NCBI RefSeq assembly: GCF_024502345.1
Contig: NZ_JALDNN010000001.1
Strand: one strand, 5' to 3'
DNA from: Escherichia coli
GTDB lineage: Bacteria > Pseudomonadota > Gammaproteobacteria > Enterobacterales > Enterobacteriaceae
Length of the DNA: 64,000 nt
Position numbers and translations under genes: made by a program. The notes under the pieces are model-generated. The model saw only the letters and a program-made list of their open reading frames with translations, made no database searches and was not told the origin of the DNA. Of the stretch, positions 4,604 to 64,000 are shown piece after piece. Numbering within the stretch: position 1 is the stretch's first letter; each line of letters begins with the position of its first letter.

Positions 4604-7360
4604 TTACCCGAGAATTTTGCTGGCTTCGCGCGCGACATTATCCATCTCGTCCAACAGTTCCAGCAGCTCCGGCTCCAAATCTTCTTCTTTAGTACCGCTA
4701 CGTAGCTGTTGTTCGATCAGTTGGCAGAGATTCTTCATACGCGGCACACCGCTATAGCCGCAACTGCCATGCAGTTTATGAATCAAATCAACCAGGCCTT
4801 CCGGGTTTTCTCCAACCAGCTGCTCCTCAACTTTGTTGCGAACTTCAGGCAGGAAATCGAGTAACATTTGCAGCATATCGCGCGCTAAATCGGTTTTTCC
4901 TGCTGCCTGGCGTAGTGCCAGTTGCCAGTCGAGGGTCGCATTCGGGTTCACCACAATTTCGTTGACTTCGGGCGTCACGACGCGAGACGAAATACCGCTG
5001 CCAGGCTTGTAGCGCAACAACAAATTATGCAATCGCTCTTCTTCAATCGGTTTCGCCAGATAATCGCTCATCCCTGCGCCAAGCAGCTTCTCTTTTTGCC
5101 CGGCCATTGCATGCGCCGTTACCGCGATAACCGGCGTTTGTTGCTGATGGGGGAGCTGGTGGATGAGCTCGCAGGCCCGAATGCCATCCATGTCAGGCAT
5201 TTGAATATCCATTAAGATCAAATCGAACGGCATCTGTTTCGCCCGTTCAACCGCCTGATGCCCGCTATCGCAAAGTTCCATATGTTGCACCATATCTTCC
5301 AGCAATGCGCCGATAAGTTTCAGGTTAGCGGGGTTGTCATCAACTGCCATGACTGTCATTGCCAGCTTGCTTTCATCGGTTACAGGCAAAAGCGTGTTTT
5401 GTTTGTGATGACAAAATTCCGTCAGGGCAGGCAACAGGCGCGTAGGTGTTAATGGTTTCAGCAGACACGCGCCGATACCATCTTGCTTGAGTTTTTCTGC
5501 ATTGACTTGTGCATGGCAAGGAAGTGCCAGCATCAGGAAATCGGTCATCGATACCGCTTTCGCTAATCGCTCATGTTGCATTGTTAGCGGCTCGCGGAAG
5601 GTCACCGCGATGCCTAACAACATCATGTCGTAATGCGCGGGAGGCAGCGCGGAGAACGTTGGGCTATAAACCACTTCCAGCGGCGTTTCACTTAAAATAT
5701 CCAGCGTGCATTGCGCTGCTGCGGAGTTTGGTTCGACATAGGCCAGGCGCTTACCGGCGAGGCACTGGGTGGATGGCCCTTCGATAATAATGTTCGGGTT
5801 CAGATCGAGATTAATGTGGAACCAGAAAGTTGAACCGCGATTCGGCTGGCTATGGAACGAAATATCGCCGCCCATTTCATTAACCAGTTTTTGTGTAATC
5901 ACCAGCCCCAGACCGGTGCCACCATGACGGCGGGAAATACTGGCATCAGCCTGTCGGAAGGCCTGGAATAAGCGCGATTGATCGCGTTCAGGAATACCAA
6001 TGCCGGTATCCCGAATCTGCACTTCAATCTGCACTTTGGTATTACTCAGCGCACGTTTTTCTACCAGAATATCAATGTTGCCATTCTCGGTGAATTTAAT
6101 TGCATTCCCCACCAGGTTAGTGATGATTTGCTGTAATCGCAGTGGGTCGCCGATCACGTTATCAGGCACGTCGCTTTTAATATTGAGCGTCAGTTCCAAC
6201 CCTTTATCGTGAGAAGAATGTGCCAGCAGAGTAACGACTTCATCCAGCGTGCTGCGTAGTGGGAATGGAATACTTTCCAGAATCAGCTTACCTGCTTCCA
6301 GTTTCGAGAAGTCGAGAACATCATTAATAATTGCCAGCAAATTATTTGCCGAACGTTCAATCGTATTCAGGTGATCGCGCTGCGTTGGTGTTAATTCTGT
6401 TTTCAGCGTCAGGCGGGTAAAGCCAATAACACCATTCAGTGGTGTACGCAGCTCGTGTGACATATTTGCCAGAAACTCGGATTTAATACGCGCCGCTTCC
6501 TGGGCGCGCTTTTTCGCCAGATCTAACTCAACGTTCTGAATTTCCATCTGCTCCAGCGTTTCACGCAGATCGGACGTCGCCTGGTCGATATTGTGCTGCA
6601 TCTCTTCGTGATAAGCAGCCAGCGACATTGCCATCGAGTTGATACCGTTTTTCAGCATATCCAGCTCGCCGAGCATAAATCCTTCCACCCGGCTGTCGAG
6701 TTGCCCGCGACGGATGCGGTCGACGGTATTCACCATGTTGCGAATCGGACCGGTTACATCGCGCATTAAGCGCCAGCCAAAAATAAGCGCAATACCGATA
6801 CAAAACAGCATCATCACGCTGGAAATAAAGATCTCTTTATATTGCTGCAAGCGAACCGATTTAAGATCCAGCTCCAGCGCAATATATCCCAACATATTTT
6901 GACTATTTTTGGCATCGCTACTGGGCGATTCGTCGGGGGAGTAACTCTCAGAAATAATCGGCGTGCGGAGGATCATAATATCGCCGTCACGAGTGACAGT
7001 GAGCTGGCGAGGAAACGGCACGTTGCTGCCGAGCTGCATTGATGAGGGATCAAGATGAAAATTGGAGGTGACAAAGAGTCGGTTATTTTCATCATAAACC
7101 GAAATCGCGCGAACAATATCGGAATGGCGACGATGCAGTACGCTTATTAACTGACCGATAGATTCGCGATTTTGCAGGCTCATGCCATATTCAGTAGAAA
7201 CTGCAAGCGGCTCAATAATGCTGGCACCGGCATCTTCCAGTTGACGCTGCAAGTCGTTATAGCGATGCACGACGAAAAAGATACTCAGCAATAAACCAAT
7301 AAGGACGGTCGGTGCCAGGATCAGAATCATCATGCGTGCGCGCAGGCTGTAGTTGGTCAT
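4604..7360 (-). CDS. barA: hybrid sensor histidine kinase BarA
   Basis: 918-aa ORF with N-terminal transmembrane segments, HAMP, HisKA (SHELRTPLN), HATPase, receiver and HPt regions. Confidence 0.93.
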
Positions 7361-18009: not shown

Positions 18010-18832
18010 GTGTTCCCCGCGCCAGCGGGGATAAACCGCGCGATTTGTTAGCGCCCGTTGCGCCTGGTGGGTGTTCCCCGCGCCAGCGGGGATAAACCGC
18101 GCGAGTTCGTGCGCATGGGGCGCATTTTTGGCGTGTTCCCCGCGCCAGCGGGGATAAACCGCGGCGTTCATGCCCTCCAGCACTGTTACGCGGGTGTTCC
18201 CCGCGCCAGCGGGGATAAACCGTAGTCAAGCGGTAATTCATCGCCTGCAGATCCGAGTTCCCCGCGCCAGCGGGGATAAACCGGCTAATTTACGTAATTT
18301 ACGTGCTATTGCACTGAGTTCCCCGCGCCAGCGGGGATAAACCGTGGGTCATGCCGGTGATCGCCTGCCCGTCGTGGAGTTCCCCGCGCCAGCGGGGATA
18401 AACCATCACCACCGCTTGTCATAAAATTAGCGTCATAGAGTTCCCCGCGCCAGCGGGGATAAACCGGGGAGTGGCACTTCTGGGGTAGCGGCGGCCCTGA
18501 GTTCCCCGCGCCAGCGGGGATAAACCGTCAACGCGCTCAGACGTTGCGTGAGTGAACCAGAGTTCCCCGCGCCAGCGGGGATAAACCGAAATATCCAGGG
18601 CTGGGCTGGAGGCAGACGGCGAGTTCCCCGCGCCAGCGGGGATAAACCGGCGTTGATGTTCTTGCGGGTGTTGCAAATATTGAGTTCCCCGCGCCAGCGG
18701 GGATAAACCGTTTCAGCAGTTCAGCGTAACACCGACGGTCACGAGTTCCCCGCGCCAGCGGGGATAAACCGCCCGGAATGCATTCTGAAGGTTTGCTGTA
18801 TATGAGTTCCCCGCGCCAGCGGGGATAAACCA
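18010..18832 (+). CRISPR. type I-E CRISPR array, 14 repeats and 13 spacers, leader on the low-coordinate side
   Basis: 29-bp repeat G(T/A)GTTCCCCGCGCCAGCGGGGATAAACCG at 18010, 18071, 18133, 18194, 18255, 18316, 18377, 18438, 18499, 18560, 18621, 18682, 18743, 18804; spacers 32 bp (one of 33). Confidence 0.97.
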
Positions 18833-35320: not shown

Positions 35321-35528
35321 TGCGAGCAGCATTCCTGATTTTAAACGTGAACGCCGCTGGAAGAATTATCAGGTATAGAATGGCGTCGGGTGCTTGAGGC
35401 TGTCTGGCGTTAAGCATTCGCGAGGTTCCAGATGGACAAAAGCCCCAGGCGATATTTCTATCAACCTGAGGCTCGCGTTCGAACGTAGCAATTCGAATGT
35501 TAGTCTCTTCTTTGCAGGGAGGCAAGAC

Positions 35529-35681
35529 ATGCTGACAAAATATGCCCTTGTGGCAATCATAGTGCTGTGTTTTACAGTACTGGGATTCACGCTGATGGTA
35601 GGCGACTCGTTGTGTGAGTTGAGTATCAGAGAACGTGGTATGGAGTTTAAGGCTGTTCTCGCTTACGAATCGAAGAAGTAG
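35529..35681 (+). CDS. hokX: Hok/Gef-family type I toxin (small membrane peptide)
   Basis: 50-aa [53 protein letters not shown]: single TM helix plus the family C-terminal pattern SLCEL-IR--G-E--A-LAYES; the symbol is my recollection for this position. Confidence 0.7.
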
Positions 35682-47328: not shown

Positions 47329-48468
47329 ATGAGCGCGGGAAGCCCAAAATTCACCGTTCGCCGCATTGCGGCTTTGTCACTGGTTTCGCTATGGCTGGCA
47401 GGCTGTTCTGACACTTCAAATCCACCGGCACCGGTCAGCTCCGTTAATGGCAATGCGCCTGCAAATACCAATTCTGGTATGTTGATTACGCCGCCGCCGA
47501 AAATGGGGACGACGTCTACAGCCCAGCAACCGCAAATTCAGCCGGTACAGCAGCCACAAATTCAGGCCACTCAACAACCGCAAATCCAGCCAGTGCAGCC
47601 AGTAGCTCAGCAGCCGGTACAGATGGAAAACGGACGCATCGTCTATAACCGTCAGTATGGGAACATTCCGAAAGGCAGTTATAGCGGCAGTACCTATACC
47701 GTGAAAAAAGGCGACACGCTTTTCTATATCGCCTGGATTACTGGCAACGATTTCCGTGACCTTGCTCAGCGCAACAATATTCAGGCACCATACGCGCTGA
47801 ACGTCGGTCAGACCTTACAGGTGGGTAATGCTTCCGGTACGCCAATCACTGGCGGAAATGCCATTACCCAGGCCGACGCAGCAGAGCAAGGAGTTGTGAT
47901 CAAGCCTGCACAAAATTCCACCGTTGCTGTTGCGTCGCAACCGACAATTACGTATTCTGAGTCTTCGGGTGAACAGAGTGCTAACAAAATGTTGCCGAAC
48001 AACAAGCCAACTGCGACCACGGTCACAGCGCCTGTAACGGTACCAACAGCAAGCACAACCGAGCCGACTGTCAGCAGTACATCAACCAGTACGCCTATCT
48101 CCACCTGGCGCTGGCCGACTGAGGGCAAAGTGATCGAAACCTTTGGTGCTTCTGAGGGGGGCAACAAGGGGATTGATATCGCAGGCAACAAAGGACAGGC
48201 AATTATCGCGACCGCAGATGGCCGCGTTGTTTATGCCGGTAACGCGCTGCGCGGCTACGGTAATCTGATTATCATCAAACATAATGATGATTACCTGAGT
48301 GCCTACGCCCATAACGACACAATGCTGGTCCGGGAACAACAAGAAGTGAAGGCGGGGCAAAAAATAGCAACCATGGGTAGCACCGGAACCAGTTCAACAC
48401 GCTTGCATTTTGAAATTCGTTACAAGGGGAAATCCGTAAACCCGCTGCGTTATTTGCCGCAGCGATAA
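47329..48468 (+). CDS. nlpD: murein hydrolase activator lipoprotein NlpD
   Basis: 379-aa ORF with lipobox LAGC, Q/P-rich repeat linker, LysM and C-terminal M23-like domain. Confidence 0.92.
47524..47622 (+). repeat. imperfect 24-bp tandem repeats inside nlpD (Q/P-rich linker)
   Basis: cagcaaccgcaaattcagccggta repeated about 3-4 times with substitutions, encoding QQPQIQPV-like units. Confidence 0.8.
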
Positions 48469-49523: not shown

Positions 49524-49538
49524 GTAAGCATCTGTCAG

Positions 49539-49575
49539 AAAGGCCAGTCTCAAGCGAGGCTGGCCTTTTTTCTTT
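49539..49575 (+). terminator. rho-independent terminator of rpoS
   Basis: aaaggccagtctc-aagc-gaggctggccttt hairpin followed by a T-run. Confidence 0.8.
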
Positions 49576-49643: not shown

Positions 49644-50084
49644 CTATGTGCTCATCATCTTGCGCACCAACTGCATAAACAGCTCCTGCTCTTCTACACT
49701 CAAACGCCCCAAAAATTCCTCATCCACGCGGTCACCAATCGGTATCGCCGCAGCAAGTATCTTTTCTCCTTCGGCAGTCAGCCAGACAAAGCGTCGCCGC
49801 TTATCAGCGGCGTCATGTTCACGTCTGACTAAGCCACGATTTTCCATTCTTGCCAACATTTCTGCCAGCGTTGCTTTGGTGCTGACTGCTGCTTCTATCA
49901 GTGCCACCTGTTCGATACCAGGCTTATCAGCAATGGCACGCATCACCGCATACTGTGGTTTGGTCAGGTCAGGTAACTCGTGCTGCCAGCGAGCCGTGTG
50001 CTGCTGAAAAAGCTGTCGTAACTGATGGAACGCTTTATTTCGTAACGCCATGTAAACTCCGGGCAAACTATCTGCCGCTATCAT
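49644..50084 (-). CDS. MarR/SlyA-family transcriptional regulator
   Basis: 146-aa ORF with winged-helix region typical of MarR proteins; divergent from the UbiX-like gene. Confidence 0.75.
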   Translation of the reverse strand: MIAADSLPGVYMALRNKAFHQLRQLFQQHTARWQHELPDLTKPQYAVMRAIADKPGIEQVALIEAAVSTKATLAEMLARMENRGLVRREHDAADKRRRFVWLTAEGEKILAAAIPIGDRVDEEFLGRLSVEEQELFMQLVRKMMST

Positions 50085-50166
50085 AACGGTTTTTCAGTGA
50101 CGAAGGGGATGTTGTTACTTTTCAGTGCTTGCCGCAATGAGAACAGAGGCGTATTTTAATAATAAC

Positions 50167-50180
50167 GTTCGTATACGAAC
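50167..50180. promoter_or_regulatory. perfect 14-bp palindrome, candidate MarR-type operator
   Basis: gttcgtatacgaac, 18 bp upstream of the UbiX-like start codon. Confidence 0.45.
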
Positions 50181-50197
50181 AATTAAGAGAGTAAGCA

Positions 50198-50791
50198 ATG
50201 AAACTGATCGTCGGGATGACAGGGGCTACCGGTGCGCCTCTTGGTGTGGCATTACTGCAAGCGCTGCGGGAGATGCCGAATGTCGAGACTCATCTGGTGA
50301 TGTCGAAGTGGGCGAAAACCACCATTGAACTGGAAACGCCTTACAGCGCCCGCGATGTTGCTGCCCTCGCTGACTTCAGCCATAACCCGGCGGATCAGGC
50401 GGCGACCATCTCCTCAGGTTCCTTTCGTACCGACGGCATGATCGTTATTCCGTGCAGTATGAAAACGCTCGCCGGTATCCGCGCTGGTTACGCTGATGGC
50501 CTGGTAGGGCGCGCGGCGGACGTCGTGCTCAAAGAAGGCCGCAAACTGGTGCTGGTGCCGCGTGAAATGCCGCTTAGCACCATCCATCTCGAAAATATGC
50601 TCGCACTTTCACGCATGGGCGTGGCGATGGTGCCGCCGATGCCTGCCTTTTATAACCATCCCGAAACGGTAGATGACATTGTCCACCATGTAGTAGCCCG
50701 CGTGCTGGATCAATTTGGCCTCGAACATCCCCACGCCAGGCGCTGGCAAGGATTGCCGCAGGCCGGGAATTTTTCTCAGGAGAATGAATAA
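50198..50791 (+). CDS. UbiX-like flavin prenyltransferase (decarboxylase subunit B)
   Basis: 197-aa ORF, MKLIVGMTGATGAPLG start, flavoprotein fold. Confidence 0.85.
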   Translation: MKLIVGMTGATGAPLGVALLQALREMPNVETHLVMSKWAKTTIELETPYSARDVAALADFSHNPADQAATISSGSFRTDGMIVIPCSMKTLAGIRAGYADGLVGRAADVVLKEGRKLVLVPREMPLSTIHLENMLALSRMGVAMVPPMPAFYNHPETVDDIVHHVVARVLDQFGLEHPHARRWQGLPQAGNFSQENE

Positions 50792-52217
50792 TGGCATTTG
50801 ATGATTTACGCAGCTTTTTACAGGCGCTTGATGACCACGGCCAGTTACTGAAAATCAGCGAAGAGGTGAACGCGGAACCGGATCTGGCTGCCGCTGCCAA
50901 CGCCACCGGGCGTATCGGCGATGGTGCACCGGCGCTGTGGTTTGATAATATTCGCGGTTTTACCGATGCCCGCGTGGCGATGAATACCATCGGTTCCTGG
51001 CAGAACCACGCGATTTCCCTCGGCCTGCCGCCAAACACTCCGGTCAAAAAGCAGATTGATGAGTTTATCCGCCGCTGGGATAACTTCCCGATTGCCCCGG
51101 AGCGCCGCGCCAATCCTGCCTGGGCGCAGAACACCGTTGATAGCGACGAGATTAACCTGTTCGATATCCTGCCGCTGTTTCGTTTAAACGATGGCGATGG
51201 CGGTTTCTATCTCGACAAAGCGTGCGTGGTTTCCCGCGATCCGCTCGACCCAGATAACTTCGGCAAGCAGAACGTCGGCATCTACCGCATGGAAGTGAAG
51301 GGCAAGCGTAAGCTCGGCCTGCAACCGGTGCCGATGCACGATATCGCCCTGCATCTGCATAAAGCAGAAGAGCGCGGTGAAGATCTGCCGATTGCGATCA
51401 CGCTCGGTAACGATCCGATCATCACGCTGATGGGGGCCACGCCGCTGAAATACGATCAGTCTGAGTATGAAATGGCAGGCGCGCTGCGTGAAAGCCCGTA
51501 CCCGATCGCCACCGCCCCGCTGACCGGTTTTGATGTGCCGTGGGGTTCAGAAGTGATCCTCGAAGGGGTCATCAAAAGCCGTAAACGCGAAATCGAGGGG
51601 CCGTTCGGTGAGTTTACCGGGCACTACTCCGGCGGGCGTAACATGACCGTGGTGCGTATCGATAAAGTCTCTTACCGCACCAGGCCGATTTTCGAATCGC
51701 TGTACCTCGGCATGCCGTGGACCGAAATCGACTACCTGATGGGGCCAGCCACCTGCGTACCGCTGTATCAACAACTGAAAGCCGAGTTCCCGGAAGTGCA
51801 GGCGGTAAACGCCATGTACACCCACGGCCTGCTGGCGATTATCTCCACCAAAAAACGCTACGGCGGCTTTGCCCGCGGGTGGGCCTGCGTGCGATGACCA
51901 CGCCGCACGGTCTGGGCTACGTAAAGATGGTGATTATGGTCGATGAAGACGTTGACCCGTTCAACCTGCCGCAGGTGATGTGGGCGCTCTCCTCGAAAGT
52001 GAACCCGGCAGGGGATTTGGTGCAGTTGCCGAATATGTCCGTGCTGGAACTCGACCCAGGCTCAAGCCCGGCAGGGATCACCGACAAGCTGATTATCGAC
52101 GCCACCACGCCTGTTGCCCCGGACAACCGTGGTCACTACAGCCAGCCGGTGGTGGATTTGCCGGAAACCAAAGCCTGGGCTGAAAAACTGACCACTATGC
52201 TGGCTGCACGTAAATAA
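50791..52217 (+). pseudogene. UbiD-family decarboxylase (subunit C) interrupted by a frameshift near 51874-51879
   Basis: Two overlapping track ORFs (50791-51897 and 51717-52217) in different frames together span about 475 codons; the frame switches between GGFAR and VGLRAMTTPHGLGYVKM. Confidence 0.7.
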
Positions 52218-52227
52218 GGAGAACAAG

Positions 52228-52464
52228 ATGATTTGTCCACGTTGTGCCGATGAACAGATTGAAGTGATGGTGAAATCGCCGGTGAAAGATGTCTGGACGG
52301 TATATCAGTGCCAGCATTGCCTTTATACCTGGCGCGATACCGAACCGCTACGCCGCACCAGTCGCGAACATTACCCGGAAGCGTTCCGCATGACGCAGAA
52401 AGATATTGATGATGCGCCAATGGTGCCGAGCATCCCGCCGCTGCTGGCGGAAGGTAAGCGCTAA
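52228..52464 (+). CDS. small zinc-ribbon protein (decarboxylase subunit D-like)
   Basis: 78-aa ORF with CPRC ... CQHC pairs; third gene of the UbiX/UbiD-like operon. Confidence 0.7.
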   Translation: MICPRCADEQIEVMVKSPVKDVWTVYQCQHCLYTWRDTEPLRRTSREHYPEAFRMTQKDIDDAPMVPSIPPLLAEGKR

Positions 52465-52466
52465 AT

Positions 52467-52498
52467 AAAAAGGTCCGATGCCCATCGGACCTTTTTAT
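52467..52498. terminator. bidirectional rho-independent terminator
   Basis: aaaaaggtccgatg-ccc-atcggacctttttt between convergent genes. Confidence 0.75.
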
Positions 52499-52503
52499 TA
52501 AGG

Positions 52504-53868
52504 TCAAATTACCGCCCATACGCACCAGGTAATTAAGAATCCGGTAAAACCGAGAATGGTCGTTAACACTGTCCAGGTTTTCAGACCGTCTGCTACCGAC
52601 AACCCCAGATATTTGGTCACAATCCAGAACCCTGAGTCATTAATATGTGACGCGCCAAGCCCACCAAAGCAGGCTGCCAGCGTCACCAATACGCACTGAA
52701 TCGGATTCAATCCCATCACCGCTTCTGAGAGTAACCCGCCGGTTGTCAGGATTGCTACGGTTGCTGACCCCTGCGATGCACGCAGCGCCAGTGAAATAAT
52801 AAATGCGGCTGGTAACAGAGGCAGGTCAATCATTTGTAGCATGTTGGCAAGGGCTTTGCCGACGCCCGATTCCACCAGCACTTTGCCAAATACCCCTCCA
52901 GCACCAGTAACCAAAATCACTACCGCCGCAGTGGGAAGGGCTGAGCCCATAATGTCGCTGGTGTGTTGTAAGCTCCAGCCGCGACGTAAAGCCAATAACC
53001 AGAATGCCAGCACCAGCGCAATCATTAGAGCTACCATTGGTGAGCCGATCAGCTGTAGCGTACCAAGCAGGGGATGCGAAGGCGGCATCAGTGTTGCGGA
53101 AACCGTACCCGCCATGATAATCGCGATAGGAATAACAATTAGCGAGGTGACCAGCGCGACGCCCGGTGGATTTATTTTATCGCTTAATTTTGTCGCGCCT
53201 TCCTCACTGGCCGGAGCCAGTTGCATCTGTTCCAGTACTTCCACCGACATCGCATATTGGCGTTTATTGATTATTTTCGCTGCAAAGTAGCCAACAACCC
53301 CTACGGGAATAGAAATCGCAATACCGATGATGGTTAGCCAGCCGATGTCTGCGTGGAGTAACCCCGCTGCGGCGACAGGGCCTGGATGCGGCGGTACCGC
53401 CACGTGAACAGTGAGCATGATCCCAGCGACAGGCAGGCCAAATTTGAGTGGCGATATTTTGGCTACCTTGGCAAAACCGTAAATGATTGGCGCAAGAATA
53501 ATAAAGCCGACATCAAAGAAGACGGGAATACCGAGGAAGAACGCTGCCAGAGTCAGCGCAGCGATAGTTCGTTTGTCACCTAACTTGCGACTGAAATAAT
53601 TAGCCAGTGATTCTGCACCACCAGAGTGTTCGATCATACGCCCCAGCATAGCGCCCAGACCAATAATAATAGTGACGGAACCAAGCACACCGCCCATCCC
53701 GGCGATCATCACTTTACCCACTTCGCCCGCCGGTATACCCGCCGCAAGTGCGACTAACAGGCTGACGAGGAGCAGAGCAACGAATGGTTGTACCTTTGCC
53801 TTGATGACCAGCAGCAACAGCATGATTACGCCAGCTAACGCAATGCATAACAATGTAATTGTGGACAT
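52504..53868 (-). CDS. ygbN: GntP-family permease
   Basis: 454-aa multi-pass membrane ORF. Confidence 0.85.
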   Translation of the reverse strand: MSTITLLCIALAGVIMLLLLVIKAKVQPFVALLLVSLLVALAAGIPAGEVGKVMIAGMGGVLGSVTIIIGLGAMLGRMIEHSGGAESLANYFSRKLGDKRTIAALTLAAFFLGIPVFFDVGFIILAPIIYGFAKVAKISPLKFGLPVAGIMLTVHVAVPPHPGPVAAAGLLHADIGWLTIIGIAISIPVGVVGYFAAKIINKRQYAMSVEVLEQMQLAPASEEGATKLSDKINPPGVALVTSLIVIPIAIIMAGTVSATLMPPSHPLLGTLQLIGSPMVALMIALVLAFWLLALRRGWSLQHTSDIMGSALPTAAVVILVTGAGGVFGKVLVESGVGKALANMLQMIDLPLLPAAFIISLALRASQGSATVAILTTGGLLSEAVMGLNPIQCVLVTLAACFGGLGASHINDSGFWIVTKYLGLSVADGLKTWTVLTTILGFTGFLITWCVWAVI

Positions 53869-53956
53869 GGGAAACCCTGTCTGAAAGTTATAGTTAACCT
53901 ACCCCATCCGTAGATGGGGGGATGTATGGGTACGTTGTAATTAGGGATTTAACGAA

Positions 53957-54733
53957 TTAGCGCCAGGCGTCAAACCAGCCAAGCCCTTCTTCGGTGAGGC
54001 CACGAGGTTTATATTCACAACCGATCCAGCCCTGATATCCCACCTCATCGAACAGGCGGAACAGCCACGGATAGTTGATTTCTCCATCGTCCGGTTCATG
54101 TCGATCAGGTAGTCCGGCAATTTGTACGTGCGCATATTTCCCAGCGTAGTCGCGGATTAAATGCGTCAGGTTGCCATCTACTTTTTGCGCATGAAAAGTA
54201 TCTAGTTGAATAAACACGTTATCTCGCGCAACCTCTTCAACAATAGCCAGTGCCTGATACTGGCTGGAGAAGAGATAATGAGGCTTAACGTCGGGGCTGA
54301 GTGCTTCAACTAATATTCGCTTGCCGTGTAGCGCAAAGCGGTCGGCCGCGTAGCGGAGATTATCGATAAATACTGCCCGGTACCGTTCAGCGTCTTCGCC
54401 AGCGGGCACGACGCCTGCCATCACATGGACTTGTTCACAATTGAGCGCCAATGCATATTCCAGTGCCAGGTCGATGTCTGCGTGTGCTTCGTGCTCACGT
54501 CCGGGAAGGGCGGATAATCCCCATTCCCCCGCATTAATATCTCCGGGAGCGGTATTGAACAGCGCCAGTGTCAGATGGTTTTGCTCCAGTTGCTTTTGGA
54601 TTTGCAGGGTGGAGTAGTCATAGGGAAACAGAAATTCCACAGCATCGAACCCGGCTTTTCGCGCTGCGGCGAAGCGTTCAATAAAAGGCACTTCGGTGAA
54701 CATCATGGATAAATTAGCTGCAAAACGAGGCAT
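53957..54733 (-). CDS. ygbM: hydroxypyruvate isomerase-family protein (xylose-isomerase-like TIM barrel)
   Basis: 258-aa ORF; family and position. Confidence 0.85.
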
Positions 54734-54737
54734 TGCA

Positions 54738-55376
54738 TTAACTCCTTAATTCCGCAATTTCACCTGCGGTCAGATAACGGATCGGGCGGTCACCGAGAAT
54801 AAAAATCAGCTTTGCCGTTTCCTCCAGCTCTTCCATATTGTTGGCGGCTTCTTGCAGGCTTTCACCGCAAACCACTGGGCCATGATTTGCCAGTAAAAAA
54901 GCCTGATTGTCTGCTGCCAGTTCCGCCAGATCCTGTGCGATGCGTTTATCGCCCGGTCGGTAATAAGGCACCAGCGGGACATTTCCCATCCGCATCACCA
55001 CGTATGGTGTGAACGGACGAATAACGTTGCTGCTGTCCAGCCCTTGCAGGCAGGAAAGCGCCGTCGACCATGTGCTGTGCAAATGCACCACCGCTTTACA
55101 GCGCGGATTGTTGCGATACAGCGCCAGATGAAAGAGCACCTCTTTCGAGGGTTTGTCACCACTTAACCATTCGCCATCCGCGGCGACTTTGGAAAGCCGC
55201 TGCGGATCGAGATTGCCCAGGCATGAACCTGTCGGTGTCGCCAGTAAATTCCCGTCAGGTAAAAGCAGCGACAGATTGCCAGCCGAACCGGTTGCATAGC
55301 CGCGCTGAAAGAATGAACTGGCAATCCGCGTCATCTCCTCTCGCAAAGACTGCTCTACTTTTGCGAAATCGCTCAT
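54738..55376 (-). CDS. ygbL: class II aldolase/adducin-family protein
   Basis: 212-aa ORF. Confidence 0.85.
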
Positions 55377-56635
55377 GATAAAAACTCTCTTTGGGCTCGT
55401 GAAAAAAAGGCTTCATCACCGAAGTTGCCAGATTTAAGGGCGAGTGAGACAGGCTTATCCAGTGCGTTTACCCACGGCACGCCGGGGGAAATGGTTGGGC
55501 CAATATGAAACCCTTTTATGCCCAGGCTCTGTGTGACTACGCCGGAGGTCTCACCGCCTGCGACAATAAAGCGTGTCACGCCTTCCGCTGCTAACCGCGC
55601 CGCTAGTTGAGAAAACAGAGTTTCTACTGCCTGACTGGCTTTTTGTGCACCGTATTGCTGTTGAATTGCTGCCAATGCGTCAGTGCTGGCGGTGGCAAAA
55701 ACCAGTGGAGCAAGTACACTTTCCTGGCCCAGAACCCACTCTGCCAGTTCGTGTGCATAAGCGGCCAGAGTTTCGGTTGAGAGGCAGCGTGCCACATCAA
55801 CTTCACGGGCTGGTGCAATTTGACGGTAATGTGCCACCTGGCGGTTGGTCATTTGAGAGCATGAACCGGAGAGCACTACGCCGCGCCCAGCGAGCGGACG
55901 CCCTGCTTCGCGAGCCTGGTTACCGTTTTCTTGCGCCCACTGCCGGGCCAGGCCAATCGCCAGACCAGAACCGCCCGTTACCAGTGGGGCATCGCGCAAG
56001 GCTTCTCCCTGAATTTCCAGATGGTGTTCGGTCAGCGCATCAAGCACCGCGTAGCGGTAGCCTTCTTGCTGTAAGCGAGCCAGCTCTTGACGAACGGCAT
56101 CCACACCTTGTTCGAAAACATGTGCCGAAACGACGCCGCAGCGCCCTGTGGATTGCGCTTCAACCAGACGGGGAAGATAGCTGTCGGTCATGGGATTTAC
56201 CGGGTGATGGCGCATCCCGGATTCGGCCAGCAGTTGATTCATTACGAACAAATACCCCTGATAAACCGTACGTCCGTTGACCGGCAGGGCCGGAGAGAAG
56301 ACCGTAAACGGCGTGTCGAGAGCATCCATTAATGCATCGGTAACCGGGCCAATATTACCTTTCGCCGTACTGTCGAAAGTAGAGCAGTATTTGAAATAGA
56401 TCTGTTTGCAACCTTGCTGTTGCAACCAGCTCAGAGCCGCCAGCGATTGCTGTGTGGCTTCAACCACCGGACAGGAGCGCGTTTTCAGGCTGATCACCAG
56501 TGCGTCGATTGCTTCCGGCATTTTACCTGTTGGAACACCGTTAATTTGTACCGTTGGTAGACCGTTTTCCACCAGAAAACTGGCGATATCCGTCGCGCCG
56601 GTAAAATCATCGGCGATAACGCCAATCTTGATCAT
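55373..56635 (-). CDS. ygbK: four-carbon acid sugar kinase family protein
   Basis: 420-aa ORF with N-terminal IADDFTGATD motif. Confidence 0.8.
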   Translation of the reverse strand: MIKIGVIADDFTGATDIASFLVENGLPTVQINGVPTGKMPEAIDALVISLKTRSCPVVEATQQSLAALSWLQQQGCKQIYFKYCSTFDSTAKGNIGPVTDALMDALDTPFTVFSPALPVNGRTVYQGYLFVMNQLLAESGMRHHPVNPMTDSYLPRLVEAQSTGRCGVVSAHVFEQGVDAVRQELARLQQEGYRYAVLDALTEHHLEIQGEALRDAPLVTGGSGLAIGLARQWAQENGNQAREAGRPLAGRGVVLSGSCSQMTNRQVAHYRQIAPAREVDVARCLSTETLAAYAHELAEWVLGQESVLAPLVFATASTDALAAIQQQYGAQKASQAVETLFSQLAARLAAEGVTRFIVAGGETSGVVTQSLGIKGFHIGPTISPGVPWVNALDKPVSLALKSGNFGDEAFFSRAQREFLS

Positions 56636-57540
56636 GATTTCGCTCCCGGTAGAGTGATGCCAGAGAAAATCTTGATAACTGCGCTATCGTCTTCTTTCCC
56701 GTAACCCGCGTTACTGGCGCTGGTGAACATATTCAATGCTGTTGAGGCCAATGGCAGCGGGAAGTGCAGGGCTTTGGCTGTATCGGCAACCAGACCAAGA
56801 TCCTTAACAAAAATATCGACGGCTGAATGCGGGGTGTAATCGCCATCCACCACATGACGCATCCGGTTTTCGAACATCCAGGAATTTCCGGCGGCATTGG
56901 TCACGACGTCATACATCACATCCAGCGGGATCCCCGCACGGGCTGCAAGTGCCATCGCTTCGGCTCCGGCAGCAATATGTACGCCCGCTAACAACTGGTG
57001 AATAATTTTTACGGTCGAACCTAGTCCCGGTTCTGCACCTATGCGATAAACTTTTCCGGCAACGGCTTCCAGCACGGGTGCCAGTCGTTCAAAGGCAATA
57101 TCGCTACCGGAGGCCATGACAGTCATTTCACCGTTAGCGGCTTTTACTGCACCACCAGAAACTGGCGCATCCAGCATTTCCAGATCGAATCCAGCCAGAG
57201 CGGTAGCAATTTCTTGCGCATCAGCACTAGCGATAGTGGAAGAAACCATTACTGCCGTACCGGGTTTCAGATGTTGTGCAACGCCTGTTTCACCAAACAG
57301 CACCTGTTTAACCTGGGCCGCATTGACCACCAGCACCAGCAGAGCGTCCAGTTTTTCGGCAAACGTCGCGGCGTTATCAGAAACCCCGCAAGCACCTGCC
57401 TCTTTCAACGTAGCGCAGGCATTGCTGTTCAGGTCTGCGCCCCAGGTAGAAAGACCTGCGCGGACACATGACAGTGCTGCTCCCATTCCCATTGACCCTA
57501 AGCCAACGATACCGACATGAAACTCAGATCCCGTTTTCAT
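56632..57540 (-). CDS. ygbJ: NAD-dependent dehydrogenase (3-hydroxyisobutyrate dehydrogenase family)
   Basis: 302-aa ORF with Rossmann GLGSMG motif. Confidence 0.85.
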   Translation of the reverse strand: MKTGSEFHVGIVGLGSMGMGAALSCVRAGLSTWGADLNSNACATLKEAGACGVSDNAATFAEKLDALLVLVVNAAQVKQVLFGETGVAQHLKPGTAVMVSSTIASADAQEIATALAGFDLEMLDAPVSGGAVKAANGEMTVMASGSDIAFERLAPVLEAVAGKVYRIGAEPGLGSTVKIIHQLLAGVHIAAGAEAMALAARAGIPLDVMYDVVTNAAGNSWMFENRMRHVVDGDYTPHSAVDIFVKDLGLVADTAKALHFPLPLASTALNMFTSASNAGYGKEDDSAVIKIFSGITLPGAKS

Positions 57541-57705
57541 CTGCTCTCCTTGTTAATTTAAGTGATATTTTGTTTGATATTGTTAATATAAGCGCTGGAA
57601 GATAACGATATGGTGAGCTGATTCACATAAATTAACATTGTGTGTTATTTTATGTGAACTAAGCGTTAGTTGCGCCGCGCACGTTTCGCAGGCAAATAGC
57701 GTAGA

Positions 57706-58503
57706 ATGTCAGCAGGACAAAGGAAGGAGCAAAAGTTGATACCCGTAGAGCGTCGCCAAATCATCCTTGAGATGGTAGCTGAAAAAGGCATTGTCAGTAT
57801 TGCTGAACTAACGGACAGAATGAATGTGTCACATATGACCATTCGTCGGGATTTACAAAAACTGGAGCAGCAGGGAGCCGTTGTGCTGGTGTCCGGAGGC
57901 GTCCAGTCTCCGGGACGCGTGGCGCATGAACCTTCTCATCAGGTAAAAACTGCGCTGGCAATGACGCAAAAAGCGGCTATTGGCAAGCTGGCGGCAAGTC
58001 TTGTTCAGCCGGGAAGTTGTATCTATCTGGATGCGGGAACGACCACGTTAGCGATAGCACAGCATCTGATTCACATGGAGTCACTGACTGTGGTCACAAA
58101 CGATTTCGTTATTGCAGACTACTTGCTCGACAACAGTAATTGCACAATTATTCACACTGGCGGTGCAGTGTGTCGGGAAAACCGTTCCTGTGTCGGGGAA
58201 GCCGCTGCGACCATGCTGCGCAGCCTGATGATTGATCAGGCTTTTATTTCTGCATCGTCATGGAGTGTGCGGGGGATTTCTACGCCAGCGGAAGATAAAG
58301 TCACGGTGAAACGGGCGATTGCCAGTGCCAGCCGCCAGCGAGTTTTGGTCTGTGATGCGACGAAATATGGTCAGGTGGCGACATGGCTGGCGTTACCATT
58401 AAGCGAGTTTGATCAGATTATCACAGACGACGGTTTGCCGGAGAGTGCCAGTCGCGCGCTGGCGAAGCAGGATCTCTCTTTGCTGGTAGCGAAAAATGAA
58501 TAA
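57706..58503 (+). CDS. ygbI: DeoR-family transcriptional regulator
   Basis: HTH plus sugar-binding domain; true start may be the TTG at about 57736 (MIPVERRQ), preceded by aaggagc. Confidence 0.8.
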   Translation: MSAGQRKEQKLIPVERRQIILEMVAEKGIVSIAELTDRMNVSHMTIRRDLQKLEQQGAVVLVSGGVQSPGRVAHEPSHQVKTALAMTQKAAIGKLAASLVQPGSCIYLDAGTTTLAIAQHLIHMESLTVVTNDFVIADYLLDNSNCTIIHTGGAVCRENRSCVGEAAATMLRSLMIDQAFISASSWSVRGISTPAEDKVTVKRAIASASRQRVLVCDATKYGQVATWLALPLSEFDQIITDDGLPESASRALAKQDLSLLVAKNE

Positions 58504-58526
58504 TGGCCTGCAATAACATTTGGTTA

Positions 58527-58566
58527 CTCATGCTTCACAGAAGAAGCATGAGACTACTTTATTTTA
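58527..58566. terminator. hairpin between convergent ygbI and pphB
   Basis: ctcatgcttc-acagaa-gaagcatgag followed by a T-rich stretch. Confidence 0.45.
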
Positions 58567-59210
58567 TAAAATGACAGCCGCCCGCTTTTCGGCGTGCCGG
58601 TATCAATATAAATCTGGTTAGCGAACGTCTGAATGTTATCAAACATCATATGTCCAAATATAAAATAATCAGCGCCGTTTATTTGTTGTAACTCGCCATT
58701 AAGCGATTTCTGCACACGATCAACAGGCCAGAGTAATTCGCTCTCCGCTATTTCTTTACCAAAGAGATATTCACTCCCCGGATAATCTGCATGTGCGATG
58801 ACATATTTTATGTTGTCGTTAGTGATTTCAATAATATGTGGAAGGTGATGGAATTTCAGCAACAGATCTGTAGCTTCTTTTTGCTCTGAATCATTTAAAT
58901 CGAAAAACCAGTCACCACCGCTGGCAAGCCACATATTGCCATCGCCGGTCGCGAACGCATCCAGCGCCATTGCTTCGTGGTTGCCTTTAACGGAGATAAA
59001 CCAGGGCTGGTTTAGCAGGCGCAGGACGTCAAGACTCTCCGGCCCACGATCAATATTATCGCCGACAGAAATAAGTAAGTCGGTTTCAGGGCAAAAAGAG
59101 AGTTGATGTAAGCGGGATTGTAATAATTGATATTCACCATGAATATCACCAACGACCCATATATGGCGATAGTGATGGGCATTAATTTTTTGATAGCGTG
59201 TAGATGGCAT
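58554..59210 (-). CDS. pphB: serine/threonine protein phosphatase 2
   Basis: 218-aa ORF with metallophosphatase motifs GDIHG, GDNIDRG, GNHE. Confidence 0.9.
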   Translation of the reverse strand: MPSTRYQKINAHHYRHIWVVGDIHGEYQLLQSRLHQLSFCPETDLLISVGDNIDRGPESLDVLRLLNQPWFISVKGNHEAMALDAFATGDGNMWLASGGDWFFDLNDSEQKEATDLLLKFHHLPHIIEITNDNIKYVIAHADYPGSEYLFGKEIAESELLWPVDRVQKSLNGELQQINGADYFIFGHMMFDNIQTFANQIYIDTGTPKSGRLSFYKIK

Positions 59211-59315
59211 GGTTTTACCCTGTAAAATAAGCTTTCCTATTATACAGGGTGTTTTTATTTTATTCGTCAGTTGTCGTTAATATTCCCGATAGCAAAAGAC
59301 TATCGGGAATTGTTA

Positions 59316-61877
59316 TTACACCAGGCTCTTCAAGCGATAAATCCATTCCAGCGCCTGACGCGGAGTCAGTGAATCCGGGTCCAGGTTTTCCAGAGCTTCG
59401 ACCGCTGGCGAGGTTTCTTCCGGTACTGACAGCAAAGACATTTGCGTACCATCCACTTGCGTAGCGGCGGCGTTCGGCGAAATGCTTTCCAGCTCACGCA
59501 GTTTTTGCCGTGCGCGCTTAATCACCTCTTTTGGCACGCCTGCCAGAGCTGCAACCGCCAGGCCGTAGCTTTTGCTCGCCGCGCCATCCTGCACGCTATG
59601 CATAAAGGCAATGGTGTCTCCGTGCTCCAGCGCATCGAGATGCACGTTGGCGACGCCTTCCATTTTTTCCGGTAACTGGGTCAGCTCGAAATAGTGGGTA
59701 GCAAACAGCGTCAATGCCTTAATCTTATTCGCCAGATTTTCTGCGCACGCCCACGCCAGCGACAGACCATCGTAAGTGGACGTTCCACGCCCGATCTCAT
59801 CCATCAATACCAGACTGTACTCGGTGGCGTTATGTAAAATATTGGCGGTTTCGGTCATCTCCACCATAAAGGTTGAGCGCCCGGACGCCAGGTCATCTGC
59901 CGCGCCTACGCGGGTAAAGATGCGATCGATAGGTCCAATCTCGACTTTTTGTGCCGGTACATAGCTGCCGATGTAGGCCATCAGCGCAATCAGTGCGGTC
60001 TGGCGCATATAGGTACTTTTACCGCCCATGTTCGGACCGGTGATGATCAACATGCGGCGCTGCGGCGACAGATTCAGCGGGTTGGCGATAAATGGCTCAT
60101 TCAGTACTTGTTCAACTACCGGATGGCGACCTTCGGTAATGCGAATGCCCGGTTTATCAATGAAGGTCGGGCAGGTGTAGTTCAGGGTATAGGCCCGTTC
60201 CGCCAGGTTCACCAGCACGTCGAGTTCCGCCAGCGCGCTCGCGCTCTGTTGCAACGCTTCCAGATGCGGCAACAGCAGGTCGAACAACTCTTCATAAAGC
60301 TGTTTTTCCAGTGCCAGTGCTTTGCCTTTTGAGGTGAGAACTTTATCTTCGTACTCTTTTAGCTCTGGAATGATGTAGCGCTCGGCGTTTTTCAGCGTCT
60401 GGCGACGCATGTAGTTGATGGGTGCCAGATGGCTTTGCCCACGGCTGATTTGAATGTAGTAGCCGTGCACCGCATTAAAGCCAACTTTCAGCGTGTCCAG
60501 GCCGGTACGTTCACGCTCGCGGACTTCCAGACGCTCCAGATAATCGGTCGCGCCGTCAGCCAGCGCGCGCCACTCATCCAGCTCTTCGTTATAGCCCGAT
60601 GCGATAACACCACCGTCGCGTACCAGCACCGGCGGTGTGTCGATGATTGCTCGCTCCAGCAGATCGCGCAGCTCGGCAAACTCGCCCATCTTCTCACGTA
60701 GCGCCTGTACCGGTGCACTATCGACAGTTTCTAACTGCGCACGCAGCTCCGGCAGTTGCTGGAAAGCGTGGCTCATACGGGCCAGATCGCGTGGGCGAGC
60801 AGTTCGTAAAGCCAGACGTGCCAGAATACGTTCCAGGTCGCCGACCTGACGCAGTACCGGCTGTAGCCCGGCGGTGAAATCCTGCAATGCGCCAATAGTT
60901 TGCTGGCGCTCAAGCAACACGCGGGTATCGCGCACTGGCATATGCAGCCAGCGTTTCAGCATACGGCTGCCCATCGGCGTGACGGTGCAGTCGAGCACAG
61001 AAGCCAGCGTATTTTCCGCACCACTCGCCAGGTTCTGGGTGATTTCCAGATTACGACGCGTCGCGGCATCCATAATGATGCTGTCCTGCTCACGTTCCAT
61101 GGTGATGGAACGAATATGCGGCAGAGTCGTACGTTGGGTATCTTTCGCATACTGCAACAGACAACCGGCAGCACAAAGTCCGCGCGGCGCGTTCTCGACG
61201 CCAAAACCGACCAGATCGCGAGTGCCAAATTGTAGATTCAACTGCTGGCGCGCGGTGTCGATTTCAAACTCCCACAGCGGGCGACGGCGCAGGCCGCGAC
61301 GGCCTTCAATTAACGACATTTCAGCAAAATCTTCTGCATACAGCAGTTCCGCAGGATTAGTGCGTTGCAGTTCTGCCGCCATCGTTTCCCGGTCAGCCGG
61401 TTCGCTCAGGCGAAAACGACCGGAACTGATATCCAGCGTCGCGTAGCCGAAACCTTTGCTGTCCTGCCAGATAGCCGCCAGCAGGTTGTCCTGACGCTCC
61501 TGCAACAGGGCTTCATCGCTGATGGTGCCTGGCGTAACGATACGCACAACTTTGCGCTCAACCGGACCTTTGCTGGTCGCCGGATCGCCAATTTGTTCGC
61601 AGATGGCAACGGACTCGCCCTGATTCACCAGTTTGGCGAGGTAGTTTTCCACCGCATGGTAGGGAATCCCCGCCATCGGGATCGGCTCTCCCGCCGAAGC
61701 ACCGCGTTTGGTCAGTGAAATATCCAGCAGTTGCGACGCGCGTTTTGCGTCGTCATAAAACAGTTCATAAAAATCACCCATCCGGTAAAACAGCAGGATC
61801 TCGGGATGCTGGGCTTTCAGCTTGAGATACTGCTGCATCATGGGGGTGTGCGAGTCTAAATTTTCTATTATACTCAT
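59316..61877 (-). CDS. mutS: DNA mismatch repair protein MutS
   Basis: 853-aa ORF with Walker [10 protein letters not shown] and MutS domains. Confidence 0.97.
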
Positions 61878-62073
61878 CGGCTTGTGATGTCCATTCTCTT
61901 AATTTTTAATGAGTTAGTGGTTTTTATGGTTATCATTATGTTTCACGTTGTCTCATCGAATATCATGAAATCCTACATTTAAATGTAGGTTAAAGTGTAG
62001 CTTGCCAACCTATAGCTTGGTAAAATATGGGCACATACAGCACAACCTATATTTATGTTCATGACTGCATAAG

Positions 62074-63375
62074 GTGCATGATAACGGAGTCTTTATGGCA
62101 GGAAAACAAGAGGGAAAGCCACTTTCGTTTAAAGGGGTAGAAATGATGAAGCCAGGCGATAAAGATAAGGCTGATGTAGGCGAAAATCGTGGCTTACGTG
62201 TCTCCTGTGGTGCAACTGGTGTTAAGTCTTTTTTCTACCGTTACACAAGTCCTCTGACTGGCAAACTTGCTCAGGTTAAAATTGGTAACTTCCCGCAGAC
62301 TTCTCTCGCCGCTGCACGTCTTAAACTTCATGAATTAAAGCTCCTCCGGCAGGAAGGTCGGTGCCCTGCGTCAGAGCTTAAGCAAGATAAGCTCCAGCGT
62401 GCGATTGAAGCTGAACAGGCTAAGATCCCTGAATTGACCGTACAGGGATTAGTTGAACTGTATCTTACTGAACGTATTGAGGATCGTAAAACGAAGGACG
62501 GGAAGGTCATTCCCGGTGCCAGAAAACCGAAAGGACAGGCTGAGGTTCGTCGTACTCTCTATGGTGACGCTGTTAAAAGTTTAGGAACCCGGAATGCTGC
62601 TGAGATAACGCGCCAGGATGTTATTAATTTAATCAATGGCATTGTAGCTCGGGGCGCAACCGTACAGGCAGGGAATGTACTGAGAGAACTTTCACTCGCA
62701 TATGAATTTGCAATTGGACTTGGGCGCTTTGATGACAGTTTTGCGAATCCAGCGCTGTTAGCAAAATCTAGCTTACGACAGACCAGAATCAAGCTCACAA
62801 ATGGACGTGGAACACGAGTACTGAGTGAGGACGAGCTTGCAAAATTCCTTAAATGGCTACCGGGTTCGGCTTACACGCCAACGATCAAAAACGTGTTACG
62901 TCTGACTCTCTGGACCGGGTGTCGTACCGGTGAAGTCTGCAATATGGCATGGAAGGATGTTGATCTTGAAAAAGGCACCATTCATCTTAGAGAAACCAAG
63001 ACTGGAGTAGAGCGTTACGTTCAGTTATCGGATCAAGCGATCGACTTTCTCAAGGTTCTACGCCTTACCTCTGACAAATATCTATTCCCTTCACAAGCCA
63101 CTAAAAAGCCAATCCAGCAGAAGTATCTAACTGAAAACTCATGGCGTTTACGTGAAAGCGGTCAAATGCTTGATATACCTCATTGGACGCCGCATGATCT
63201 GCGTCGTACAGTACGAACGGGCTTATCTCGTTTGCAGTGTCCAAATGAGGTGGCTGAGGCCGTATTGGGGCATACACGAGGCGGTGTTGAAGGGATTTAT
63301 AATCTGTATAAGTATGATGCTGAGTGTAGGAAGTGGTTGCAGGTGTGGGCGGATTATTTAGATACTTTAACGTAA
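62074..63375 (+). CDS. int: tyrosine-type site-specific integrase (P4-like)
   Basis: N-terminal arm-binding pattern KPGDKDK...GLRV...RY; C-terminal catalytic HDLRRT and LGHTRGGVEGIYNLY; the true start may be a downstream Met. Confidence 0.85.
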   Translation: MHDNGVFMAGKQEGKPLSFKGVEMMKPGDKDKADVGENRGLRVSCGATGVKSFFYRYTSPLTGKLAQVKIGNFPQTSLAAARLKLHELKLLRQEGRCPASELKQDKLQRAIEAEQAKIPELTVQGLVELYLTERIEDRKTKDGKVIPGARKPKGQAEVRRTLYGDAVKSLGTRNAAEITRQDVINLINGIVARGATVQAGNVLRELSLAYEFAIGLGRFDDSFANPALLAKSSLRQTRIKLTNGRGTRVLSEDELAKFLKWLPGSAYTPTIKNVLRLTLWTGCRTGEVCNMAWKDVDLEKGTIHLRETKTGVERYVQLSDQAIDFLKVLRLTSDKYLFPSQATKKPIQQKYLTENSWRLRESGQMLDIPHWTPHDLRRTVRTGLSRLQCPNEVAEAVLGHTRGGVEGIYNLYKYDAECRKWLQVWADYLDTLT

Positions 63376-63445
63376 TTTGCCAATTAGATGTCCAATCATT
63401 TCGTTACATCAAAGTTGTGCTTAATTTTTATTTTATAAGGATAAT

Positions 63446-64000
63446 ATGGATATTTTTTCTGGAGAATCAATTCTTTCCCAAGTCCCTGATGTCAATCATT
63501 GGTTAGCTTCTTACGGCTTGAATTCAACTACATCAAGATATAGCAGATATATCTCTTATATTGATGCTTTTTTTGAGTCGAAAGATCCCACCTCATCTGA
63601 TGGAAGAGACAAATTTGATTTATTAACCAAGTCGTATGCAGAAATTATAGAAATAGTCAGCGTTAAAAAAGCGTTTGAACATGAAAGAAGCCCCGGATTT
63701 ATTGAGCGTTTAAGTAAGGTTGTTTCTGGAGTTGATCATGTTGGTATTAAAGAACCCAGTGAGCCAAGGAATTTTCTCTACGAATTACTTATGGCTGCCC
63801 GGCTAAAAAATGCTGGCTTTATTATTGATTTTGACCAAGGAACTGATGTTGTCGCATATGGATTTGGTCGTGCTATTTTCGTTGAATGTAAACGCACAAC
63901 ATCAATAAGAGGGTTCGAATCTAATTTCATTAAAGGTGGAAAGCAATTAGAGAGAAAGTTTAAGAGTACGAAACTTCCCCATTTTATGATTCGGGGATTT
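63446..64000 (+). CDS. hypothetical protein, 5' portion only (runs off the window)
   Basis: Open frame from ATG 63446 to the window end (185 codons, no stop), AT-rich; contains a D-x13-E-C-K stretch reminiscent of PD-(D/E)xK nucleases. Confidence 0.45.
   Translation, partial: MDIFSGESILSQVPDVNHWLASYGLNSTTSRYSRYISYIDAFFESKDPTSSDGRDKFDLLTKSYAEIIEIVSVKKAFEHERSPGFIERLSKVVSGVDHVGIKEPSEPRNFLYELLMAARLKNAGFIIDFDQGTDVVAYGFGRAIFVECKRTTSIRGFESNFIKGGKQLERKFKSTKLPHFMIRGF

Follow-up and report, generated by a model that had tools for sequence, protein, structure and literature searches.

A probable hosA and hydroxyarylic acid decarboxylase locus beside rpoS in Escherichia coli, with a frameshift in the subunit C gene

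We analysed a stretch of 64,000 nucleotides of Escherichia coli DNA (hereafter the window; contig NZ_JALDNN010000001.1 of RefSeq assembly GCF_024502345.1), in which positions 49644-52498, between rpoS and ygbN, hold a regulator gene and a divergent three-gene operon. This is very probably the known E. coli locus of HosA and the hydroxyarylic acid decarboxylase (HAD) with subunits B, C and D, in a form in which the gene of subunit C is frameshifted. Publications already cover the regulator with its ligand and operator, the enzyme subunits and the strain polymorphism of the region; what is specific to the window is a frameshift of an ordinary kind that makes subunit C a pseudogene. A sequence-only reading of the same DNA had placed the four products in the MarR, UbiX, UbiD and zinc-ribbon families of a three-subunit decarboxylase, which matches to Pfam, NCBIfam and PDB bear out; it had also described the genes as a compact unit, and this enzyme module is not intact, because the C gene is broken. 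For annotation, the strain should be listed as a carrier of a subunit C pseudogene, and phenol formation from 4-hydroxybenzoate by this route should not be assumed for it.

The locus between rpoS and ygbN

The module is flanked by rpoS on the left (ending at 49523) and by the convergent ygbN on the right (52504-53868), as the list of open reading frames (ORFs) and profile searches show, and the placement given by the sequence-only reading is therefore right. Genes B, C and D follow one another in a single operon, in which the stop codon of B overlaps the start of C at 50791 and D starts 10 nt past the end of the C frame. Homologous loci in other E. coli are labelled in RefSeq as a MarR regulator and subunits B, C and D. 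The names EcdB, EcdC and EcdD were avoided in deciding on membership, as their matches are mostly unrelated or Enterobacter cloacae genes.

The rpoS-mutS region had been called a known hypervariable region of E. coli, which agrees with the literature, where it is a published polymorphic region already treated as one of conservation and loss (PMC4209514). By in-silico polymerase chain reaction with the published primers, the window gives products of 4547 bp (o454-nlpD) and 2881 bp (mutS-o388), compared with 4546 bp and 2881 bp for pattern IV, the E2348/69 type (Ewers et al. 2014, PMC4209514). In that pattern slyA(hosA)-kpdB-kpdC-kpdD lies between rpoS and o454 (ygbN) and the ygb genes are kept, as in the window, and the sole difference is the 1-bp deletion in kpdC. 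In E. coli O157:H7, pphB-mutS and not ygbN comes after the module, which is the published pattern I. Comparing the rpoS-ygbN junction across strains, as had been proposed, it turned out that K-12 has only 11 bp between the two terminators there and that 44% of the complete E. coli genomes (2,380 of 5,426) have at least 80% of the segment. E. coli CUWW06 shares the arrangement of module and ygbN (locus L003); its ygbN (5981-7345 of that locus) contains an internal stop and is labelled a pseudogene, while ygbN in the window is intact.

The borders of the segment are defined by two terminators. The intrinsic terminator of rpoS (49537-49570, plus strand) was found by the terminator scan, folds at -24.5 kcal/mol and is aligned with the K-12 rpoS-ygbN interval. 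On the right side, a hairpin with an A-tract and a T-tract (52467-52496) folds at about -21 kcal/mol on either strand (-21.3 and -20.8 kcal/mol) and is common to D and ygbN; the scan did not detect it, as its A-tract and T-tract pair with each other, and folding was used instead. The same hairpin, AAAAGGTCCGATGCCCATCGGACCTTTTT (from 52469), follows ygbN in K-12, where the module is absent. Since the rpoS terminator (as far as about 49570) and the hairpin are both shared with K-12 and stand only 11 bp apart there, the extra segment relative to K-12 is about 2.9 kb and begins at about 49571. The module had been described as closed by a bidirectional terminator: the strong hairpin is indeed there, but, to judge from K-12, it is the terminator of ygbN and not the module's own.

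The module had also been described as inserted at this place, and the neighbourhood in other species speaks otherwise. RpoS was within the available flank in 36 species loci from other Enterobacteriaceae, and in all of them (36 of 36) the module lies at most 2.7 kb from rpoS. In 27 of the 36, hosA is 67-636 bp from rpoS in the arrangement of the window; in five, about 2.6 kb separates rpoS from the module, and the remaining four (Salmonella enterica subsp. arizonae and diarizonae, and two Phytobacter species) have it in inverted orientation. The order nlpD-rpoS-hosA-B-C-D is found in Citrobacter, Klebsiella, Kluyvera, Enterobacter, Kosakonia, Atlantibacter, Cedecea, Mangrovibacter and other Escherichia species. 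At the edges of the module there are no repeats of at least 8 bp and, in the ORF list, no integrase or transposase genes, while the GC content rises mildly, to 0.57-0.58 in the C gene from about 0.52 in the flanks; insertion by a mobile element was rejected on these three grounds. The simplest and most likely reading is that the module is an ancestral neighbour of rpoS in Enterobacteriaceae which was lost in K-12-like strains, because of the synteny elsewhere, the absence of edge repeats and mobility genes, and the 11 bp between the K-12 terminators.

A recent horizontal insertion of the 2.9-kb segment into an ancestral K-12-like rpoS-ygbN junction is unlikely by comparison, although several observations agree with it. 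Fewer than half of the complete E. coli genomes have the module, the C gene has the raised GC content given above, the C protein is 69-81% identical to actinobacterial homologues, so that the cluster crossed phyla at some time, and a preprint on the structure of HosA claims acquisition from Shigella. Such an insertion is hard to reconcile with the synteny across so many genera and with the inverted modules of Salmonella arizonae and diarizonae and of Phytobacter, which still lie next to rpoS; the edges show neither an integrase or transposase nor a flanking repeat, and K-12 keeps both terminators around an 11-bp filler that resembles a deletion scar. An old neighbour of rpoS, with an operator conserved even in Actinobacteria, argues for loss in K-12 over gain in pathogens.

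The enzyme subunits and the frameshift in subunit C

Subunit B (historical name pad1; 50198-50791, plus strand) is an intact UbiX-family flavin prenyltransferase of 197 residues. It scores 312.2 bits with the NCBIfam profile NF041206 (VdcB; cut-off 290), which supports the UbiX-like gene first read from the sequence, and matches PDB 1SBZ with E = 1.6e-128. That entry is Pad1 of E. coli O157:H7, a UbiX-like flavin prenyltransferase of the same length. Subunit D (52228-52464, plus strand), previously described as a 78-aa zinc-ribbon protein, is confirmed as such: it is intact, scores 120.5 bits with NF041205 (VdcD; cut-off 30) and has two CxxC knuckles (Cys3/Cys6 and Cys28/Cys31) that align with those of ShdD (PDB 7AE4, chain a), with which it also shares the proline-rich tail. 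In VdcD these four cysteines bind zinc, and the protein holds the catalytic loops of VdcC in position; VdcC has little or no activity without it, in assays with 4-hydroxybenzoate and vanillate as substrates (PMC8379154). The same set of subunits in the same gene order is known from VdcCD (ShdCD) of Sedimentibacter hydroxybenzoicus (PDB 7AE4, 7AE5, 7AE7), BsdBCD, KpdBCD and VdcBCD. As a variant of this order, the C gene comes immediately after the hosA homologue, and no UbiX-type B gene lies between the two, in loci of Superficieibacter, Erwinia endophytica, Cedecea, Pluralibacter and Mangrovibacter phragmitis (L013, L026, L039, L058, L082).

Subunit C (historical names yclC and kpdC; 50791-52217, plus strand) belongs to the UbiD family, as the sequence-only reading had it, but the gene is not intact. 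Aligned with three E. coli references (L001-L003), it lacks one C between 51877 and 51878 (context GCCCGCG[C]GGTGGGC), and the frame falls into two ORFs of 368 and 107 residues. The first (50791-51897, plus strand) codes for the native residues 1-362 followed by GWACVR and a TGA stop at 51895-51897. The second (51894-52217, plus strand), also called as a gene in L004-L007, opens at an ATG that overlaps this stop (ATGA) and carries the native last 107 residues (369-475) in another frame. With the VdcC profile NF041204, the N-terminal part covers positions 2-362 (606.1 bits) and the C-terminal part positions 360-466 (165.9 bits), and neither reaches the cut-off of 650 bits. For comparison, an intact E. 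coli C allele (475 aa) matches PDB 7AE4 chain A with E = 1e-160, and intact alleles in other E. coli carry the RefSeq label of subunit C.

The deletion is a real, lineage-specific lesion, because independent assemblies have it while matching RefSeq complete genomes do not. The exact 368-aa product occurs on contigs of independent samples, namely an NCBI isolate assembly, three ENA metagenome assemblies and one Logan run, and over the module three of these loci match the window at 100% identity. Seventeen contigs, among them an E. coli contig of 5.07 Mb, carry the exact 107-aa product. A 61-mer spanning the deletion was present in none of the 1,712 matching RefSeq complete E. coli genomes, none of which reaches at least 99% identity. 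Programmed frameshifting was rejected, since the frame is continuous in L001-L003 and the deletion 61-mer is in no matching RefSeq genome. Besides, two metagenome contigs (L005 and L006) share the 1-bp deletion but are not identical to the window: 16-27 positions differ, and these cluster in hosA, in the spacer and at the beginning of B (window 49914-50452; also 52001-52115).

The decarboxylase of the window strain is most likely inactive, to go by the position of the lesion, because it replaces invariant residues and falls in a predicted helix of the oligomerisation domain. Val364, Gly365 and Arg367 are invariant in an alignment of 52 sequences from Proteobacteria and Actinobacteria, and all three are replaced in the window. 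In ShVdcC the oligomerisation domain starts past a hinge at about residue 325 (PMC8379154), so that the break falls inside it, in a helix (358-369) predicted by a low-confidence model. This AlphaFold model of intact C was built from the 52-sequence alignment, has a mean predicted local distance difference test score (pLDDT) of 64.6 and was used only for the secondary structure at the break. Compared with VdcCD of S. hydroxybenzoicus, the main C ORF of the window breaks off after native residue 362 of 475 and lacks most of the oligomerisation domain. Loss of decarboxylation of 4-hydroxybenzoate or vanillate by this enzyme would thus be expected.

The two ORFs might still act as a split enzyme, in which translation stops at TGA 51895-51897 and restarts at ATG 51894, and the fragments 1-362 and 369-475 reassemble, together with D and prenylated flavin mononucleotide (prFMN), into an active decarboxylase. 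In favour of such a scheme are the overlap of stop and start, a GGGTGGG 10 nt upstream that weakly resembles a Shine-Dalgarno sequence (-6.4 kcal/mol), and a C-terminal ORF without further lesions in all frameshift-bearing loci. We consider it highly unlikely, as the break lies within the oligomerisation domain, in a predicted helix and not in a loop (by the low-confidence model), and costs the three residues that are invariant across phyla; no split UbiD-family enzyme turned up in this work. The differences within the C-terminal ORF are standing polymorphisms common to intact alleles, so there is no sign of selection on it. That the frameshift is a sequencing or assembly error in an intact module with a working three-subunit decarboxylase is scarcely credible: single-base indels are the commonest assembly error and the deletion-spanning 61-mer is in no RefSeq complete E. 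coli genome, but the identical 368-aa product and identical DNA come from assemblies of different samples, the 107-aa ORF recurs as stated above, and the context CGCGCGG has no long homopolymer.

HosA, its operator and the promoters

The divergent MarR-family regulator noticed in the sequence is encoded by a minus-strand ORF ending at 49644, which matches Pfam MarR (PF01047) with 45.5 bits. Read from the ATG at 50051 (49644-50051, minus strand; 135 aa), the product shares 131 of its 135 residues (97%) with PDB 8AGA, "Transcriptional regulator HosA" (E = 7e-83), and on this match the regulator is HosA. The start had been put at 50084 (146 aa), which has to be corrected: GGAG, a Shine-Dalgarno sequence, precedes ATG 50051 and none precedes ATG 50084, and both the crystallised HosA and the PGAP annotations of 408-bp homologues begin at MALRNK, as from ATG 50051. 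ATG 50084 itself falls within a conserved TATGAT box. The HosA of UMN026 and E2348/69 (PDB 8AGA) stands likewise divergent to a B-C-D operon, and the window protein differs from it by four substitutions (V98I, S108R, A118V and N134S) and has Asp110; the HAD operon of these strains differs from that of the window by the frameshift in the C gene.

A perfect 14-bp palindrome, GTTCGTATACGAAC, lies between hosA and the operon at 50167-50180, 17 nt before the ATG of the B gene, where the sequence-only reading had reported it and proposed it as the operator of the MarR protein. The electrophoretic mobility shift assay (EMSA) and biolayer interferometry probes for the 14-bp palindromic transcription factor binding site of HosA contain this palindrome (PMC6261655, main text and supplementary table), and its flanks in the window, CAGAGGCGTATTTTAATAATAAC...AATTAAGAG, are identical to those in the HosA probe of that study. 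By this identity, the palindrome is the published HosA binding site. The operator string had no match in the main texts of the literature and is present in the supplementary table of PMC6261655. By count alone such palindromes are not exceptional, as five perfect ones of 14 bp were observed across the 64-kb window against 5.0 expected, while the chance of one falling inside the 146-bp intergenic region is about 0.013. No second operator with up to 3 mismatches to the palindrome was found anywhere in the window.

To follow the operator across species, one genome per species was scanned with a DNA pattern for the C-subunit peptide EGPFGEFTGHYSGGRNM, which gave 120 loci. A HosA homologue (42-98% identical) is encoded divergently upstream in 67 of them. 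Among these 67 loci, the best site in the spacer has no mismatch to the palindrome in 22, one mismatch in 40 and two in 5; the arms GTTCG/CGAAC are almost invariant, variation is restricted to the central TATA, and the distance from the end of the site to the next gene is usually 15-21 nt. For example, in four actinobacterial clusters (Amycolatopsis bartoniae, L041; Saccharopolyspora rosea, L077; S. rectivirgula, L065; and L047) a palindrome of the GTTCGTATACGAAC type stands 15-18 nt before the UbiX-like gene, the C subunits are 76-79% identical to the E. coli protein and the HosA homologues 42-51%. It seems that the regulator crossed phyla together with its operator and operon.

A second operator-like site, GATCGTRTRCGAAC, abuts the conserved -35 element 56-57 bp upstream of the main operator in many genera, such as Enterobacter, Klebsiella, Kluyvera, Leclercia, Lelliottia and Pseudocitrobacter; loci with it in the hosA-B spacer include L014, L020, L021, L028, L029, L046, L049 and L087, among others. 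Vibrio, Rouxiella, Pantoea and Martelella have the two sites about 70 bp apart. The second site is absent from Escherichia (the window, L075, L103 and L114) and from several Citrobacter because of gaps of 19-28 bp (compare window 50100-50128).

Promoter positions were derived from an alignment of 47 enterobacterial hosA-B spacers. The conserved blocks CTTG and GTAnTTT fit a putative operon promoter (50129-50157, plus strand) with -35 TTGCCG (50129-50134), a 17-nt spacer and -10 TATTTT (50152-50157), and the conserved block TAT(C/G)ATA corresponds to the putative hosA -10 box TATGAT (50080-50085, minus strand). Both promoters are predictions from conservation alone, because a consensus promoter scan of the intergenic region gave nothing. 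The palindrome begins 9 nt past the conserved -10-like box, so that the operator would start a few bases past the predicted transcription start, in accord with the literature. The preprint on the structure of HosA summarises Roy & Ranjan 2016 to the effect that HosA represses itself and the HAD operon, that 4-hydroxybenzoate relieves the repression, and that the palindromic site is downstream of the transcription start, suggesting a roadblock (bioRxiv 10.1101/2024.04.24.590444). In EMSA, 4-hydroxybenzoate releases UMN026 HosA from operator DNA (PMC6261655), and HosA and this palindrome are already in use in 4-hydroxybenzoate biosensors.

Taking HosA binding, its release by 4-hydroxybenzoate, operon repression and the dependence of C on D from the literature, the switch probably works as follows. 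A HosA dimer on the 14-bp palindrome, a few bases past the predicted start of the divergent operon transcript, would block RNA polymerase; 4-hydroxybenzoate would bind HosA and take it off the DNA. The derepressed operon would then yield B, which supplies prFMN, the UbiD-type decarboxylase C, and the zinc-ribbon protein D needed by C, and together they would convert 4-hydroxybenzoate to phenol and CO2 and act in the same way on related acids, for example vanillate. The window strain has an intact switch, made up of HosA, operator and promoter, and intact subunits B and D, while its decarboxylase is most likely dead.

Several points weigh against this account of the locus. The transcription start and footprint of Roy & Ranjan 2016 (Biochemistry 55:1120) are known to us via later papers only, and the consensus scan found no promoter in the intergenic region, where the operon candidate has 8 of 12 matches and stays below the threshold. 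One of the HosA substitutions, at residue 108, is only two residues from the ligand-binding Asp110. As to the lesion, production of both C fragments is conceivable from the ATGA overlap with the weak GGGTGGG upstream, and the mosaic contigs L005 and L006 could be due to recombination around an older frameshift allele, or to chimeric assembly.

Other features of the window

Outside the module (1-49500 and 52504-64000), the best full-length matches among the 5,426 RefSeq complete E. coli genomes are only 98.2-99.2% identical over stretches of 11-25 kb, and on the right-hand side the closest flanks belong to isolates from frog and river. The E. coli lineage behind the window seems to be sparsely sampled. 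At 35388-35544 on the plus strand, the sok antitoxin RNA (Rfam RF01794) is matched over its full length with 106.7 bits, which points to a chromosomal hok/sok-type locus. A short CRISPR array (18196-18404) has a period of 61, about 3.4 copies and the repeat GTTCCCCGCGCCAGCGGGGATAAACCG, and the best E. coli matches to window 25001-49500 carry type I-E cas annotations, including cas3 and casA. Besides, a 24-bp tandem repeat of 2.6 copies within nlpD (47527-47589) codes for the QQPQIQ repeats of NlpD.

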